This document shows, piece by piece, positions 18,171 to 52,220 of a stretch of DNA of 64,000 nt. The notes under the pieces are model-generated. The model saw only the letters and a program-made list of their open reading frames with translations, searched no databases and was not told where the DNA came from. Made by a program: the position numbers and the translations under genes. Within the stretch, counting starts at the first letter, position 1; each line of letters starts with the position of its first letter. Source of the DNA: Bacteroidota bacterium (lineage in GTDB: Bacteria > Bacteroidota > Bacteroidia > NS11-12g > UBA955). The stretch spans positions 8,433 to 72,432 of the forward strand of contig CANMBF010000010.1 in NCBI GenBank assembly GCA_947496065.1, in the 5' to 3' direction.

Positions 18171-18300
18171 TGCAAGGCACTAGGAACTAGGAACTAGGGG
18201 AGGAGGTGCAATAGATAAATTATCTGCTGGAAAAGTTGGCACCCTTCGACTCCCGATAGCTATCGGGACAGGATGACTAAGCAGTTGGCAATGAAACCTC
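18126..18300 (+). repeat. CHU_C gene 3' end plus the flank element, a TCCCGAT hairpin and GTTGGCA words
   Basis: See 13537-13665. It contains TCCCGATAGCTATCGGGA at 18251-18268. Confidence 0.8.
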
Positions 18301-21363: not shown

Positions 21364-22161
21364 ATGACTGCCAAAATTCCTCAACTCCGAACCGTGAATG
21401 TAACGCGTTACATTGCGCCTCTGCGCGAGGGAGGGTCGTTGCCAGCCTTGGCCGAAGCCGATGATGATTTTAAATACGTGTTAAAATTCAGAGGGTCGGG
21501 TCATGGTTCAAAGGCTTTAATTGCTGAATTGATAGGAGGCGAGTTGGCCCGTGTATTGGGTTTGCGCATCCCTGAGTTGGTGTTCGCCAATTTAGACGAA
21601 GCATTCGGTCAGGCCGAAGGCGATGAAGAAATACAAGATTTATTGAAGGCCAGTCAAGGTTTGAATTTGGCCTTGCATTTTTTAAGTGGTGCCATTACTT
21701 ACGATCCAGTAGTAATGACCATAGATGAAGACCAAGCCTCGGCGATTGTATGGCTCGATGCTTTTATTTTGAATGTCGATCGCACATTTAAAAACACCAA
21801 TATGCTGATATGGCAAAAGCAATTGTGGCTCATCGACCATGGGGCCAGTTTGTATTTTCACCATTCGTGGACCGATTGGGAAACACATGCCAAGAGCACA
21901 TTTAAATTGGTAAAAGACCATGTGTTATTGCCACAAGCCAAAACCATTGATGCCATCAATGCAAAGTACAAAGCCCTGTTAACAGACGATGTTTTAAAGG
22001 GCATCGTTGCATTAATCCCCGAAGCATGGTTGCATTGGGAAGGCAGTGATGAAACACCAGAGGATATACGAAACACTTATGCGAATTTTTTAATCATGCG
22101 ATTAAAGCATTCCGATTTATTCACAAAAGAAGCACAGCATGCAAGCCAAACACATCTATGA
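21364..22161 (+). CDS. HipA-like (PI3/4-kinase-fold) Ser/Thr kinase, short form
   Basis: Catalytic-loop-like NVDRTFKNTN, Mg-binding-like LIDHGAS, and an N-terminal glycine-rich KFRGSGHGSKA segment. 265 aa, so it lacks the long HipA N-terminal domains. Confidence 0.65.
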   Translation: MTAKIPQLRTVNVTRYIAPLREGGSLPALAEADDDFKYVLKFRGSGHGSKALIAELIGGELARVLGLRIPELVFANLDEAFGQAEGDEEIQDLLKASQGLNLALHFLSGAITYDPVVMTIDEDQASAIVWLDAFILNVDRTFKNTNMLIWQKQLWLIDHGASLYFHHSWTDWETHAKSTFKLVKDHVLLPQAKTIDAINAKYKALLTDDVLKGIVALIPEAWLHWEGSDETPEDIRNTYANFLIMRLKHSDLFTKEAQHASQTHL

Positions 22162-22522
22162 ATATGCGGTAATCCGCGTGTTGCCTGCGGTTGAGCGCGA
22201 GGAGTTCTTGAACATAGGACTGATATTGTTTTGCAAAAAAGCGAAATTTATTAAGGTGAATTTTGCTTTGAATGAAAATAAATTGAAAGTGTTTGCTCCG
22301 AAATTGGAGTTGGAGCAATTGCAAAAAAATCTAGAATCATTAGAAAAAATTGCGAATGGTGCCAAGGATGGAGGACCGATTGCATTATTGGATATTCCTT
22401 CGCGTTTTCGATGGTTAACTGCGGTGCGTAGTTCTTGCATACAGGTGTCACGCCCGCATCCGGGTTTGTGCGAAGACTTAGAAAAAACCGCTCAGCGTTT
22501 ATTCGAAGAAATGGTTTTGTAA
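22139..22522 (+). CDS. DUF3037-like protein
   Basis: The N-terminus YEYAVIRVLPAVEREEFLNIGLILFC matches my recollection of the DUF3037 signature. Overlaps the kinase gene by 23 nt. Confidence 0.55.
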   Translation: MQAKHIYEYAVIRVLPAVEREEFLNIGLILFCKKAKFIKVNFALNENKLKVFAPKLELEQLQKNLESLEKIANGAKDGGPIALLDIPSRFRWLTAVRSSCIQVSRPHPGLCEDLEKTAQRLFEEMVL

Positions 22523-22536
22523 CGATTTTCTTCTTT

Positions 22537-23062
22537 GCCACAGATTCACAGATTAAATTTGAATACATTAATACCACAGATTAAATTTTAATGCTTAATA
22601 TTTTACTCAAGTGCTTCTTGTCCCGTAGGGACAAAACATCTGTAAAGTACAACCTACCCAATGTTCAATATCCCGTAGGGATTATACTTATAACTAAGTT
22701 TTAACAAAAAGCGATAATAAGTTATCGGTCAGTCAACGAATACCACAAATGAAATCTAACGCTTAATCTTTCACAAAGCTTCCTCTTGTCCCGTAAAGAC
22801 AAAACATCTGTAAAGTGTCACCTATCCAAAGCTTCAATATCCAGTAGGGATTATACTTATAACTAAGTTTTAACAAAAAGCGATAATAAGTTATCGGTCA
22901 GTCAACGAATACCACAGATTAAATTTAACGCTTAAGTTTTCACAAAGCTTCCTCTTGTCCCGTAGGGACAAAACATCTGTAAAGTGTCACCTACTCACTG
23001 CCTCAATATCCCCTAGGGATTATACTTTTGACTAAGTATCACTAGTAAGCGTTAAAGCATGA
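22537..23062 (+). repeat. Family B element: head motif GCCACAGATTCACAGAT plus three tandem 169-bp units
   Basis: ACCACA(G/A)A unit starts at 22573, 22742 and 22911. Each unit carries TGTCCC-GTA-GGGACA and ATCCC-GTA-GGGAT hairpins 50 bp apart, plus CGATAA-TAAG-TTATCG. Confidence 0.9.
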
Positions 23063-23593
23063 AAAAGACTTAGAAAAAACAAACTACTAATAAAGTACAT
23101 AAGATCTCAGATGGATTTTACTTTTGTGTGTAACAGAGTAATGGTGCCTATGCTTTTTTCTTTTTTAAAAAAGTACTGAATAGTAAGCTTGTAATTGCAA
23201 GTATTAAAACAGGAGGGAAGATTATGAAAATTTCAATACTGTAAACAAGTCCTTTGAAGAGATATTTTATTCCTTTAATCAAGCAAGCAAGTTGCATTGC
23301 GTATGTCAACACATGGTTAAGTTTATAATAAATTTTATTGGTCTGCTCAATAGGGTTACTCTTCTTATTTTACCAATGAAAATTTTACTTCTCGAAAGCT
23401 ATCAGGATGGGCCCAATGGTTTGGTTGTATGTTGTAAATAATTTGTTGCGATGGAGCTTTGCCTTGCAAAGCTGACTCTCTTACTTTTTTGTTTGGACAA
23501 AAAAGTAACAAAAAAACCACCACGCATAGAAAATTTCAATCGGTCTTCTCGCGCTGGCTCGCCCTTCATCCCTGACCGAAAGAAATTTTTACG

Positions 23594-23611
23594 TCCCGAT
23601 TATTATCGGGA
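23594..23611. repeat. TCCCGAT-family hairpin
   Basis: TCCCGATTATTATCGGGA, inside an ORF-free palindrome cluster. Confidence 0.7.
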
Positions 23612-23943
23612 TGGACCCAGCCCGCACGTCTAGCGTTCAACTAATTTTGTGCGTTAGTGTAAGTTATTGGTTTTAGTCAATGATCTTTTTCCTTCGCTGA
23701 CTAAAATTAATTGATGTGTAATATAATCTTTACATCGGCATATTAATGAAGCCATATGATTAAAAAACATACCATTTGGTATTTATAAGAGAAACTAATG
23801 CAAGTTGTATAGAAACAAGAGGTAGATGAATTAGATACGACTTAATCGAAAAGGCTGTTGTCGTTAATAGGAATTGGTTTTTTGTGCAATATCTTAAAAG
23901 TTAATCTGTGTATCTGTGGCGTATTAACTAAACAAAGGGCCAC

Positions 23944-23969
23944 AAAAAAAACGCCCGAATAATCGGGCG
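23944..23969 (-). terminator. Rho-independent terminator downstream of the lipoprotein gene
   Basis: 7-bp GC stem CGCCCGA-ATAA-TCGGGCG followed on the minus strand by T8. Confidence 0.75.
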
Positions 23970-24109: not shown

Positions 24110-25588
24110 TTAGTAAGCCAACTGTTGAGAGTTGAAATTAGCCCAAACATCTGACCAATCGTCTGAACCAAAAGCACCTTTGAAACTTGTAGTGTTGTTG
24201 AACCAAGTAGATAATTTAGCATCTGTAAATTTAGCACCACTTTGGGTTGCACCAGAGAACAAAGCCAAATTAGGGTTTTGAGGGTAAGTACCACCAGTAA
24301 CACCAGAAACTGTATTAAAGCCCATGATTAAAGTTGGCTCGATACCAGCATCAGCAAATGTTTTAGAGTAAACCAAAGTACCAGAAGTTGCTTGTGGATT
24401 GTTTAAAGTAAATACTGTGTTAGATTTAGTTGTTTTCCAGTAAGTAGCTACGTTAGCATCTGCTGCAGCACCATTGAAGAAAGAACGTTGTGATTTTCCT
24501 TTAACACCTGGGCAAACCAAGATATTATTATCTAATACAGCAGCACCACTATTGTAGTTAGCGATAGTGCCATCTAAATTTAAACCAATTGGGTAACCTA
24601 CTATTACAGAATTGAATAAAGATAATTCAGTATTTCTTCTTAGGTGTAAAGCGTGTAAGTAGTTACCGCTGAAAGAAGCTTTAGCTGAATCGTAAACTGG
24701 ACCTAATAAAGTTACGTTAGAGAATACAGCAGAAGTTTTAGGGGTTGAAGTTGAACCAGAAGCATCGTTATCAGATTCGAAACCGTTTGAACCAGATTGG
24801 TCAGCGTTGAAAGGGTCACGCATACCGATAGCGTATTGCACTTTACCACTGAAACCGAAGTCGGTATCGAAATCATCATCCCAACCACCGAAAGCGATTA
24901 AGTGTGCACAATTAACAGTACCACCGAACCACTCGTAAGAATCGTCACCACCGTAAGATATTTGAACGTAGTCGATAGTTGTACCATTACCAACTGCACC
25001 CATGGTTAAACCATTGGTTTCGTTGTTTGGAGTAATAGCGATACCAGCATATTCAATACGTACATATTTTAAAATACCACTGTTGTCATTGTCGTTAGCA
25101 GTGCTTTGGAAAGTACCATAAATAACTGCAGGTGTAATACCTTCGATAGATGGTGAGTTTTGGTTAATGTTAGCTTTACCCAACATAATAACACCACCCC
25201 AATCACCTTGCTCTCTAGCACCTCTGTCTTGGTTACTAGTAAAGATAATTGGACTAGAAGCAGTACCATCAGCAATGATTTTTCCACCTGGCTTAACTAC
25301 TAAAGTACCTTTAGAGCTTTTTTGACCAAATAATTTAGTACCTGCAGGGATGGTTAAAACTGAACCGCTTTCTATGAATACTTGACCAACTATTAAATAC
25401 TTTTTGGTAGCATCTAAAGATTGCGTTGGCAAAGAACCAATTAATTCTGTGTAGATAGCTGGCGGCTGAACTAAGATGGTATCACGAATGGTGATGTATT
25501 CTTTTTCAATCTTAGTCTTGGTGCAAGAAGAGAATGTGAATGCAGCAACTGATGCAATAATTCCCATTGTTAAAAATTTAAATTTCAT
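24110..25588 (-). CDS. Conserved hypothetical lipoprotein downstream of the TonB-dependent receptor (non-SusD)
   Basis: Lipobox FSSCTK. Motifs GDWGGVIMLG, YEWFGGT and FESDND. Codon usage looks strongly biased. Confidence 0.65.
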   Translation of the reverse strand: MKFKFLTMGIIASVAAFTFSSCTKTKIEKEYITIRDTILVQPPAIYTELIGSLPTQSLDATKKYLIVGQVFIESGSVLTIPAGTKLFGQKSSKGTLVVKPGGKIIADGTASSPIIFTSNQDRGAREQGDWGGVIMLGKANINQNSPSIEGITPAVIYGTFQSTANDNDNSGILKYVRIEYAGIAITPNNETNGLTMGAVGNGTTIDYVQISYGGDDSYEWFGGTVNCAHLIAFGGWDDDFDTDFGFSGKVQYAIGMRDPFNADQSGSNGFESDNDASGSTSTPKTSAVFSNVTLLGPVYDSAKASFSGNYLHALHLRRNTELSLFNSVIVGYPIGLNLDGTIANYNSGAAVLDNNILVCPGVKGKSQRSFFNGAAADANVATYWKTTKSNTVFTLNNPQATSGTLVYSKTFADAGIEPTLIMGFNTVSGVTGGTYPQNPNLALFSGATQSGAKFTDAKLSTWFNNTTSFKGAFGSDDWSDVWANFNSQQLAY

Positions 25589-41077: not shown

Positions 41078-41605
41078 ATGTCAGCGAGACTTAAAAATTT
41101 TGACTATTCTTCTCCTGGGGATTATTTCATCACTATCATTACGAAAAACAGAGTGCATTATTTTGGCCAAATTAAAGCTCCACCAATTGAAAATACAGAA
41201 ATTAATGAGTCGAAAATGTTGTTAAATGCTATTGGGTTAAGGGCGCACCAATGTTTACAAGAATTAAATCATCATTTTAGCAATGCCATAATTGATGAAT
41301 TTATTGTAATGCCTGACCATGTCCATTTTATTTTGAGTATAAAAAAACCAAACACATTAGATGCAATTATTCAAAAGGAATTTAAATCCAATCGATTTTC
41401 AAGACCAGTTGCAGGCTCAGTGTCTGTTATTGTTCAACAATTCAAGGCCGAAGTGAAACGGTGGTGTGGTAAAAATGGGTTTGAAGCGTTTCAATGGCAA
41501 CCAAGGTTTTACGACCGATTGATAAGAGATTATCGAGAATTTGCCAATGTAAAGAAGTATATCCAAGAGAATCCCAAAAAATGGGGTAAAAAAAAATCCA
41601 AATAA
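41078..41605 (+). CDS. IS200/IS605-type HUH/Y1 transposase homolog, RAYT-like
   Basis: HUH motif PDHVHFIL (H81-V-H83), catalytic-Tyr region WQPRFYDRLIRD (Y145), and a C-terminal YIQENPKKW. There is no partner tnpB. Confidence 0.75.
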   Translation: MSARLKNFDYSSPGDYFITIITKNRVHYFGQIKAPPIENTEINESKMLLNAIGLRAHQCLQELNHHFSNAIIDEFIVMPDHVHFILSIKKPNTLDAIIQKEFKSNRFSRPVAGSVSVIVQQFKAEVKRWCGKNGFEAFQWQPRFYDRLIRDYREFANVKKYIQENPKKWGKKKSK

Positions 41606-41611
41606 ACCGCC

Positions 41612-41741
41612 TGTCACACCAACATACGTGTTACATCATCACACTTGCTACACCATCATGCCCATTACACGATCATCTCTGTTACACCATCAAACGTGTT
41701 AAACGAGCAAACCTGTTACACCAGCATATATGATGGTGTAC
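41612..41741 (+). repeat. Seven exactly phased 17-bp direct repeats (consensus TGTTACACCATCA + 4 nt) plus a terminal inverted copy
   Basis: Unit starts at 41612, 41629, 41646, 41663, 41680, 41697 and 41714. The inverted TGATGGTGTAC at 41731-41741 pairs with unit 7. Confidence 0.9.
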
Positions 41742-48744: not shown

Positions 48745-49075
48745 TCTAACCACAGTCAGACTGAGCCTGTCGAAGTCCCAGTACTTCCAAGATTAACGCC
48801 CAAGGATTATTGTTTAAGCCAACCATTCAGGCTTCGTAACTCTTCGACCATACGTTCGACTCCCGATAGAAATCGGGACAGTATGACGAAGTGTTAGGCT
48901 AACGAAAAAACATAACCTACATCAGTCAGACTGAGCCTGTCGAAGCAATAGTACTTCTAGGAATAATATCTTAGGATTTGAATAATCACAATCGATCTGT
49001 GAACTAATCACAGTTTTAATCTGTCCCAATAGAAATAGGGACTGTGGCTTAATTATGGCACAATCCAAACTTGGT
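48745..49075. repeat. Family C: two units of about 170 bp carrying GTCAGACTGAGCCTGTCGAAG and a TCCCGAT hairpin
   Basis: The 21-mer starts at 48755 and 48925. TCCCGATAGAAATCGGGA lies at 48861-48878. Confidence 0.8.
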
Positions 49076-49094: not shown

Positions 49095-49317
49095 TTTTAT
49101 GAGACAGGCTAAAAGTATAATCCCTAAGGGATATATAAGCAGGGGTTAGTTTTTACTTACAGTTATTAAATCCCTACGGGATAAGGATACAATTGTTGAT
49201 TTTTGAGTTGCATAAATTAAATCCCTACTTAATGGTGTAGGCTAAAAGTTAATTTTTAGTAGTAAAATTAAATCTGAGAATTTAATGTATTCAATTCTCT
49301 TCTGTGAATCTGTGGCT
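49095..49317 (-). repeat. Family B element, inverted orientation, ending with the head motif next to the Usp gene stop
   Basis: GCTAAAAGTATAATCCCTAAGGGAT...ATCCCTACGGGAT...CTGTGAATCTGTGGC. This is the reverse complement of the 22.5-kb units. Confidence 0.85.
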
Positions 49318-51609: not shown

Positions 51610-51665
51610 GCCACAGATTCACAGATTGAAATTAGCACCAATAGATTTCACAAATTTTAATACTT
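51610..51665 (+). repeat. Family B head fragment, starting 7 nt after the hemW stop
   Basis: GCCACAGATTCACAGATTGAAATT... is homologous to 22537-22600. Confidence 0.8.
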
Positions 51666-51734
51666 AAATTTGTTAAGAAAGATGTTTGTCTTTATTTTTT
51701 TTTGACTTGAAGCCAATTAGTTTTTTATCACACA

Positions 51735-51945
51735 AGCTAAAAGTATAATCCCTACGGGATATTGAGGCAGTGGTTAGTTTTTACTTACAGATATTATATC
51801 CCTACGGGATAAAGCGACACATTAGTTATTATTAGGTTTACATCTATTAAATCCCTAACGGATAATGTATGCAATAAGGTACTTTTATACATTAAATACA
51901 ATCTGAGAAATGATTGTATTCAATACTCTTCTGTGAATCTGTGGC
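51735..51945 (-). repeat. Family B element, inverted orientation (copy 1 of 2 upstream of 52264)
   Basis: It begins GCTAAAAGTATAATCCCTACGGGATA and ends CTGTGAATCTGTGGC. Confidence 0.85.
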
Positions 51946-52009: not shown

Positions 52010-52220
52010 GTAGGCTAAAAGTATAATCCCTACGGGATATTAAGGCAGTGGTTAGTTTTTACTTACAGATATTAAATCCCTACGGGATATAGAAGCAGGG
52101 GTTAGTTTTTACTTACAGATATTAAATCCCTACGGTATAATATATACCATTAGTTTATTTTCAGCATTAAAATTCAATCTGAGAAATAATGTATTCAATT
52201 CTCTTCTGTGAATCTGTGGC
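52010..52220 (-). repeat. Family B element, inverted orientation (copy 2), with three 50-bp sub-repeats
   Basis: TCCCTACGG hairpin cores at 52027, 52077 and 52127. It ends CTGTGAATCTGTGGC, 43 nt from the amidase stop. Confidence 0.85.

Follow-up and report, generated by a model that had tools for sequence, protein, structure and literature searches.

A tandemly duplicated hairpin element behind a DUF3037 gene in a Bacteroidota genome and its probable pairing with an IS200-like Y1 transposase

The 526-bp stretch at positions 22537 to 23062 of the window (the whole stretch of 64,000 nucleotides that was analysed, C10:8433-72432 of a Bacteroidota bacterium) lies directly behind a gene for a DUF3037 protein and is probably a mosaic intergenic repeat. 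It would combine a palindromic head motif, here called the T arm, with a doublet of short hairpins cognate to a Y1/HUH transposase that we named RAYT-B. Such a pairing would resemble the repetitive extragenic palindromes (REPs) and their REP-associated tyrosine transposases (RAYTs), tandemly duplicated locally. Among domesticated transposases that maintain tiny DNA replicators in bacterial genomes, REP/RAYT systems are the foremost example, and they are known chiefly from Proteobacteria and Cyanobacteria. The source genome, G000, is a draft of 2.9 Mb in 79 contigs with 36.5% G+C. The other genomes compared carry labels of the same kind, and G010, G021, G043, G008 and G041 are relatives of G000.

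The array and the genes in front of it are composed as follows (window coordinates).

21364-22161: HipA_2-like kinase gene (Pfam PF20613, 2.4e-19), upstream of and overlapping the DUF3037 gene.
22139-22522, plus strand: DUF3037 gene (Pfam PF11236, 1.2e-44), with the element 14 nt past its stop.
22537-22553, plus strand: head motif or T arm, GCCACAGATTCACAGAT, made of two tandem CACAGATT octamers; a third octamer lies at 22575-22582.
22573-22741, plus strand: unit 1, hairpin doublet intact, junction palindrome at 22712-22727.
22742-22910, plus strand: unit 2, both stems broken, junction palindrome at 22881-22896; 90% identical to unit 1.
22911-23062, plus strand: unit 3, truncated; its tail agrees with the single unit of G021 and with the final unit of G010.

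Tandem Repeats Finder detected a 169-bp period at 22570-23037 (2.8 copies, 87% matches, score 729). The array described in the first-pass annotation is therefore real, and its unit starts at 22573, 22742 and 22911 were recovered. The 14-nt gap behind the gene was also as reported, with the TAA stop at 22520-22522 and GCCACAGATTCACAGAT beginning at 22537. Of the three full units claimed, units 1 and 2 are complete but unit 3 is truncated to about 152 bp. The first hairpin of unit 1 (TGTCCCGTAGGGACA, 22619-22633) is followed by a 3' box, ACATCTGTAA, and the second (ATCCCGTAGGGAT, 22670-22682) by TATAC. Their distance is 50 bp, the value that had been given for every unit; in unit 3 it is 51 bp, and there the first hairpin is intact (22956-22970) and the second (ATCCCCTAGGGAT, 23008-23020) has a changed loop, CTA. 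The middle unit had been called decaying, and indeed both of its hairpins, TGTCCCGTAAAGACA at 22787-22801 and ATCCAGTAGGGAT at 22839-22851, have broken stems (CCCGTAAAGAC and CCAGTAGGG). A third palindrome, CGATAATAAGTTATCG, had been assigned to each unit. It is present in units 1 and 2 only, and neither unit 3 nor any other family copy has it. Because the unit tail departs at this point from the single-copy sequence of G021 and re-enters the unit start, the palindrome marks the duplication junction and is not a feature of the family.

The hairpins belong to a family, family B, that is dispersed in the genome. The exact 11-mer hairpin TCCCGTAGGGA (TCCC-GTA-GGGA) occurs 33 times in G000 against about 0.2 expected per strand, and these copies form 12 clusters, so the further copies sought genome-wide do exist. 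Within trains of two to seven units the hairpins run head to tail, mostly 50-52 bp apart. After each internal hairpin of a train come a box, A(T/A)ATCTGTAA, and about 25 variable nucleotides, and after the final hairpin comes TATAC. Eight of the 12 clusters have a co-oriented T arm about 80-130 nt upstream, and BLAST and nhmmer matches cover the head motif and the doublet together, which makes the composite of T arm and doublet a dispersed unit in its own right. The array is thus one member of family B, as first proposed, and the element begins just behind the gene end. The relatives that had been noted in reverse orientation at 49.1 kb and 51.7-52.2 kb were confirmed, at 49106-49316, 51734-51945 and 52012-52220, and they lie in the following composites.

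49106-49316, minus strand: family-B composite 18 nt past the stop of a Usp gene; the T arm leads, and decayed and then intact hairpins come after it.
51610-51945: 336-bp composite, a hairpin train between T arms at 51610-51625 (plus) and 51930-51945 (minus), 7 nt past the stop of a HemN-like gene.
52012-52220, minus strand: family-B composite, three-hairpin train with a 50-bp period, 43 nt past the stop of an amidase gene.

At the loci of the window and of contig C2 the hairpins were seen to be intergenic. In other family-B arrays the start-to-start distances of successive doublets are about 120, 206, 303 and 370 bp. A literature search with the motif string returned an unrelated match only. 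We also considered a CRISPR array and rejected it, because the 'spacers' are conserved between copies; the trains have just two to seven units, and the neighbouring genes are housekeeping genes.

A whole-genome search with the Pfam model Y1_Tnp (PF01797) gave four matches in G000. One of them is RAYT-B, a 153-aa Y1/HUH transposase gene at C2:125572-126033 on the minus strand (PF01797, 5.4e-28), and it is flanked by family-B doublets on both sides. The doublet 3' of the gene has hairpins at 125453 and 125503 on the plus strand, and that on the start side has hairpins at 126047 and 126097 on the minus strand, 14 nt from the start codon, with seven more hairpins beyond it. The two doublets are inverted and point at the gene. 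In RAYT-B the HUH motif reads PDHLHIF and the tyrosine motif AYIENQEEHH; both align with the catalytic residues of ISDra2 TnpA (PDB 2XM3, E = 3.7e-8). The NCBIfam model NF033573 (IS200) scored 74.4 bits against a cut-off of 55 and names the protein an IS200/IS605 transposase, whereas NF047646, the model of the E. coli-type RayT, scored 25.6 bits, below its cut-off of 80. The Y---Q--HH motif, the short length and the conserved C-terminal tail of RAYT-B are the defining features of TnpA-Y1 subclass 1.2 (PMC6006769). This subclass was described by Quentin, Siguier, Chandler and Fichant in 2018 as IS200-like proteins without insertion sequence (IS) features, having Y---Q--HH, a short core and a C-terminal domain F..EY...L.KF.I.YDE.Y.F, present at low copy and found in Bacteroidetes; no REP-like partner was reported for it (PMC6006769).

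The three Y1 paralogues in G000 share 41-55% identity, and no second copy of the whole element in this genome exceeds 55% identity to RAYT-B. The paralogue at C10:8019-8483 is 55% identical to RAYT-B, ends just before the window start and is directly followed by an array of a different hairpin, family A (GCTCC-TCTG-GAGC), at 71-1144 of the window. The periods of the two families, 167 bp for family A and 169 bp for family B, are probably near-equal by coincidence. The paralogue at C65:7173-7620 is likely a pseudogene because of an in-frame TAA, and the hairpins CAACCAC-TTCG-TGGTTG and ATCCC-TCTG-GGAT come after it. Among plasmid records, relatives of RAYT-B were found in two only, both Bacteroidota megaplasmids, and none were found in phage records; their near-absence from plasmids and absence from phages suits a chromosomal, domesticated lifestyle. 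A second and different Y1 class also occurs in the window. It is represented by a 175-aa open reading frame (ORF) at 41078-41605 that matches the E. coli-type RayT model weakly, its 53.9 bits falling short of the cut-off; a tandem repeat of 17 bp comes after it, at 41610-41728.

The pairing of hairpin and transposase recurs elsewhere. RAYT-B orthologues in G021 (96%) and G043 (88%) have the same hairpins alongside, and the inverted flanking holds in G021 and partly in G043. G008, an assembly 98% complete, is without a RAYT-B orthologue and has one exact hairpin, and its copies at the DUF3037 locus have decayed stems (TCTCTTAGGGA, TCCCAAAGGGA). This single case fits hairpin decay following loss of the enzyme. 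We then scanned one genome per species with the pattern TCCCGTAGGGA-N36-43-TCCCGTAGGGA, and the doublet was present in at least 120 stretches, each of up to 8 kb. Among the matches listed are the Bacteroidota Larkinella, Emticicia, Flavobacterium, Fluviicola, Chitinophaga, Saprospiraceae and Cyclobacteriaceae and metagenome-assembled genomes (MAGs) of Bacteroidales and Prevotellaceae, as well as MAGs from outside this phylum, of Candidatus Poribacteria, Planctomycetaceae, Anaerolineae and Ignavibacteria. In 13 of the 120 stretches listed (other Bacteroidota) a homologue 48-76% identical to RAYT-B lies nearby, mostly directly beside the doublet, and 10 of these 13 loci follow the same orientation rule. 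The full-length homologue ORFs recovered all have Y---Q--HH, and most are exactly 153 aa.

Outside Bacteroidota, an Anaerolineales MAG encodes a homologue of 55% identity whose start is 21 nt away from the hairpins, and a Planctomycetaceae MAG a 34% homologue with one-mismatch hairpins on both sides. In Poribacteria the same doublets occur together with non-adjacent homologues of 51-52%; one such MAG has a 51% homologue and a three-hairpin train about 470 nt downstream. The spacing has its peak at 51 across 178 doublets among the matches listed. The box after the hairpin reads ATAT-N3-GTAG/ATAG, and within this genus it is ATATCTGTAA. Other subclass-1.2 genes have hairpin families of their own in a similar layout, often with a spacing of about 51-52 bp, such as ATCCTC-GTA-GAGGAT, CCACGAGC-TTTA-GCTCGTGG, and GCCCC-ATA-GGGGC in doublets 52 bp apart. 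At about 19 further subclass-1.2 loci, hairpin doublets with other copies in the same genome lie on the flanks of the gene.

Two other arrangements were seen in the Candidatus Poribacteria MAGs. One is a long regular train of AG-TCCCGTAGGGA-CGATATGTTTATAG, and the other is a pair of inverted doublets, adjacent and about 40 nt apart, which is REPIN-like.

On balance we favour the broader view that subclass 1.2 as a whole has a cognate repeat, namely a doublet of hairpin plus 3' box at about 51 nt. Its TCCC-GTA-GGGA variant would be conserved base for base beside proteins 50-76% identical in Bacteroidota and Anaerolineales MAGs, and would represent a new cross-phylum class of REPtron in which the spacing reflects a dimer binding both hairpins. 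The REP/RAYT arrangement is known, and what is new here is a probable cognate repeat for subclass 1.2, for which none has been published. If this view is correct, the subclass-1.2 Y1 proteins gain their missing DNA substrate, a defined test oligonucleotide is available (hairpin and box, doubled at 51 nt), and one transposase-repeat pairing is common to several phyla. For annotation, it would account for many contig breaks in Bacteroidota MAGs and for many of their intergenic stretches that lack ORFs and are rich in repeats.

In the mechanism that we propose, the hairpin unit would be TCCC-GTA-GGGA with its 3' box ATATCTGTAA, arranged as a head-to-tail doublet with about 51-nt spacing, and this doublet would be the DNA structure cognate to RAYT-B, an IS200-like HUH/Y1 transposase of subclass 1.2 that is chromosomal and present as a single copy. 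On the model of the REP/RAYT and IS200/IS605 systems, RAYT-B would bind the hairpins on single-stranded DNA, and cutting and rejoining nearby may seed and maintain the intergenic copies. At the DUF3037 locus, the internal 169-bp segment (third octamer, doublet and tail) would have been duplicated in tandem before G000 and G010 separated. A second duplication in G000 or one loss in G010 would have come later, with unequal recombination or replication slippage as the probable cause, and the middle copy would subsequently have lost both stems. The architecture, the dispersal through the genome, the doublets around the transposase gene, the recurrence of this pairing in several phyla and the copy-number differences among species are read directly from the sequences; we infer the action of the transposase on the hairpins, this route of duplication and any effect on neighbouring genes.

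The history of the locus could be followed in five species, all of which have this element behind the same gene pair. In G043 the element is compact, at about 170 bp, and has one unit; T arm, doublet and inverted T arm come first, and then the terminator of the neighbouring gene. G021 also has one unit, G010 has two with the same junction palindrome, G000 has three, and G008 has five, which are 206 bp long and set in another register, one that takes in the T arm. The tandem units of the array are 84-90% alike, and 84-92% when the units of G010 are included. Compared with unit 1 of G010, unit 1 of G000 is 92% and unit 2 is 91% identical, and unit 3 of G000 is 89% identical to unit 2 of G010; the first duplication is therefore older than the split of the two. 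The array is old and decaying, not active. It reads as an old tandem duplication within a mosaic repeat, with no structured RNA, and the 169-bp array itself is an ordinary local duplication of little consequence.

At the same locus in G043, both hairpins of the doublet have the loop GCA in place of GTA (TGTCCCGCAGGGACA, ATCCCGCAGGGAT), and other doublets of G043 keep GTA. This matching change suggests conversion between the hairpins or joint selection.

Like the REP or BIME elements with their RAYT (the E. coli REPtron and the REPINs of Pseudomonas), family B has a low-copy Y1/HUH gene between inverted copies of a short hairpin. As in those systems, the same hairpin is dispersed between genes as singletons, head-to-tail dimers and clusters with other motifs, every paralogue has its own hairpin family, and the hairpins have decayed in G008, which has no orthologue. 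However, RAYT-B falls in subclass 1.2, nearest to IS200 TnpA, and outside class 2 of TnpA-REP. The stems of family B are very short (5-7 bp) with 3-nt loops, and its basic unit is a head-to-tail doublet with about 51-nt spacing and a 3' box, present at about a dozen loci per genome.

RAYT-B agrees with subclass 1.2 in motif, short core, C-terminal domain, low copy and occurrence in Bacteroidetes. It differs from the subclass as published (PMC6006769) in that the genes here are flanked by doublets recurring in the genome and that its hairpin is also found with members from MAGs of Poribacteria, Anaerolineales and Planctomycetaceae. With IS200/IS605 and their gene-less derivatives (PATEs) it shares the transposase fold and catalytic residues (the best PDB match being ISDra2 TnpA), subterminal hairpins, and the lack of terminal inverted repeats of its own and of target duplication. 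In contrast to them, it has no near-identical multiple gene copies, its paralogues being 41-55% identical, and its flanking hairpins are inverted and not co-oriented. Also unlike them, it is rare on plasmids (two records) and absent from phage records. TnpA-Y1 subclass 2.6, or RAYT group 5 of Bacteroidetes, is another protein subclass and was set apart on that basis alone.

The T arm is a repeat in its own right. GCCACAGATTCACAGAT is the arm of a palindrome, and its 16-mer occurs six times in the window against 0.03 expected (22537, 23905, 49301, 51610, 51930 and 52205). G000 has 34 copies at two mismatches or fewer. At one mismatch or fewer, all 28 copies lie between genes, although about 88% of the genome is coding. 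About 10 of these 28 lie within 30 nt of a gene 3' end, and about half face away from the nearest gene end, so that a position directly after a gene is a tendency and no rule. The arms are often inverted pairs with unrelated interiors, of 100-490 bp in G000 and of 68-490 bp when distant Bacteroidota are included; they also occur as singletons, and in relatives they form same-orientation arrays of about 52 bp. Across the phylum, the T-arm 15-mer was found in 51 of 301 genomes, compared with 10 of 301 for the reversed control. Its distribution is patchy, it is identical in distant families, and there it reaches up to about 50-68 copies per genome. In distant Bacteroidota the motif is a simple long-stem palindrome between genes with A/T runs on its flanks. 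It is also present on nine viral contigs.

No target-site duplication was seen at about 15 copies of the T arm inspected. Among the T pairs of G000 and G008 no autonomous element with T ends was found, in a search that was not exhaustive. The T arm as cognate repeat of another Y1 gene was rejected, the motif being found in none of 18 Y1 loci of T-rich genomes. The one gene found between T arms, in G008 at C41:7200-8400, encodes a 128-aa GxxExxY protein (TIGR04256, 1.3e-36) and no transposase. A link of the T arm to this nuclease-fold gene was likewise rejected, as three homologues in G000 are without T nearby. Like the Correia elements of Neisseria, ERIC/IRU and RUP, the T arms behave as 16-17-bp terminal inverted repeats round short non-coding interiors, intergenic and often behind genes. 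They differ in that T is without target duplication or known autonomous partner, occurs in same-orientation tandem arrays, and has an identical arm in distant families of one phylum.

Several observations weigh against a REP/RAYT-like system. Twelve hairpin loci in G000 are low for a REP family, and the GT[AG]G tetranucleotide at the 5' foot of a canonical REP hairpin is absent from family B. In this family GTAG spans the loop and the first stem base, and on the 3' side of the hairpin a GTAA/GTAG/ATAG box follows after about 10-12 nt. G010 and G041 have 30 and 14 exact hairpins, and no RAYT-B orthologue was detected in these assemblies, which are 83% and 72% complete. The element is orthologous in five species at the DUF3037 locus, so there was no recent movement there. 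We located the flanks of five T elements of G000 in G010, G021, G008, G041 and G043, and four candidate sites were aligned; no clean pair of filled and empty sites was recovered from these four, the intergenic DNA being too diverged for clean junctions. The T arm, for which this explanation gives no account, may determine where the composites lie.

A rival reading takes the element as a conventional non-autonomous miniature inverted-repeat transposable element (MITE), in which the T arms at 22537 (plus) and 23920 (minus) would be terminal inverted repeats served by a DDE transposase in trans and the hairpins would be passengers. Terminal inverted repeats are indeed present, in the form of the 16-17-bp T arms in inverted pairs, and those pairs, in G000 as in distant Bacteroidota, enclose 68-490 bp of unrelated sequence. 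A compact T-doublet-T element of about 170 bp was seen in G043 and another at C51:13572-13786, and the identity of the 15-mer across families of the phylum, in 51 genomes against 10 for the reversed control, would suit such an element. Yet none of the copies inspected has a target-site duplication, and the non-exhaustive search gave no gene-sized T-bounded element with a transposase. The tandem arrays in one orientation at about 52 bp are un-MITE-like. Doublets also occur without T beside the Y1 gene and in other phyla, and the MITE reading leaves the hairpins unexplained; we regard it as unlikely.

A cis-acting RNA of the HipA_2/DUF3037 operon, whether a long structured 3' untranslated region, a terminator or mRNA-stabilising module, or a small RNA, seems to us distinctly unlikely. 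The start 14 nt past the stop in the orientation of the gene, the T arms within 30 nt of gene 3' ends, the A/T runs that flank T palindromes elsewhere in the manner of bidirectional terminators, and a terminator-like score for the hairpin at 23008-23020 all speak for it. On the other side, no Rfam family matched in the window at the gathering score, and at permissive E-values the region gave chance-level matches only. Folded as RNA the whole region has z = -0.8 and only local hairpins fold; a unit folded as single-stranded DNA has z = -2.2. The gene is conserved, yet the stems are decayed in unit 2 and in the entire array of G008. About half of the T arms point away from the closest gene end, the genes on either side have unrelated functions, and from the far side a conserved small ORF runs towards the array. 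The hairpins may have a secondary, exapted role as terminators.

A plain minisatellite or segmental tandem duplication with no enzyme link, its hairpins recurring by copying alone, would behave as the copy numbers do. They vary among sister species (1, 2, 3 and 5), the register of G008 is different, and the units are old and diverging. The test set in the first-pass annotation, hypervariable copy number without positional pattern, thus turned out half as a minisatellite would have it, yet the pattern of position and architecture is clear. Copying alone leaves the 12 dispersed loci unexplained, and also the identical 11-nt hairpin at about 51-nt spacing in several phyla beside a conserved gene. 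We consider this account most improbable; it is contradicted for the unit, and for the array itself it is part of the REP/RAYT-like explanation that we prefer.

The array sits between two converging genes, and the genes around it are housekeeping genes that are functionally unrelated. The following features lie downstream of it.

23148-23312, minus strand: small ORF of about 49-54 aa (...MQLACLIKGIKYLFKGLVYSIEIFIIFPPVLILAITSLLFSTFLKKKKA), converging on the array; protein conserved, DNA diverged.
23500-23640: another repeat module, CCACGCATAGAAAATTTC, with hairpin TCCCGATTATTATCGGGA at 23594-23611; duplicated in G010 and inverted in G021.
23905-23920, minus strand: inverted T arm with one mismatch; the first arm is 1384 bp away, compared with about 170 bp enclosed by the two arms in G043.
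23952-23969: GC-rich hairpin CGCCCGAATAATCGGGCG, terminator-like for a converging 492-aa gene (24110-25588, minus strand) and outside the element.

The 1384-bp segment enclosed by the T pair 22537 (plus)/23920 (minus) was considered as an insertion sequence and rejected: it has no transposase ORF, just the conserved ORF of about 50 aa and small repeats. This ORF, at 23148-23312, is conserved in amino acid sequence in four species (G000, G010, G021 and G008) and reads ...LACLIKGIKYLFKGLVYSIEIFIIFPPVLILAITSLLFSTFLKKKKA, with a C-terminal hydrophobic helix and then a KKKK tail. A promoter-like site lies at 23395-23367, and a Pfam search with the protein gave no match. It is probably a real, unannotated small membrane protein. 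On the plus strand at 23213-23245, antisense to it, AGGAGGGAAGATT-ATGAAAATTTCAATACTGTAA comprises a Shine-Dalgarno-like sequence and a six-codon mini-ORF (MKIS[IM]L) in three of the four species; this is probably a by-product of the conservation of the small ORF.

The CCACGCATAGAAAATTTC module, about 150 bp long, has seven copies in G000, with a four-copy array at C7:35504-36384 and further copies at C5:76040 and C47:17369. The hairpin TCCCGAT-N4-ATCGGGA is a third abundant hairpin family in G000, with about 36 loci and mostly AGCT loops; examples in the window are at 18251, 18599, 23594 and 48861 (C10:26683, 27031, 32026 and 57293). In G021 one hairpin of this type lies inside the right T arm (ATCTGT-[hairpin]-CTGTGGC), and a hairpin is likewise joined to GCCACAG at 49053 of the window and at C33:10837.

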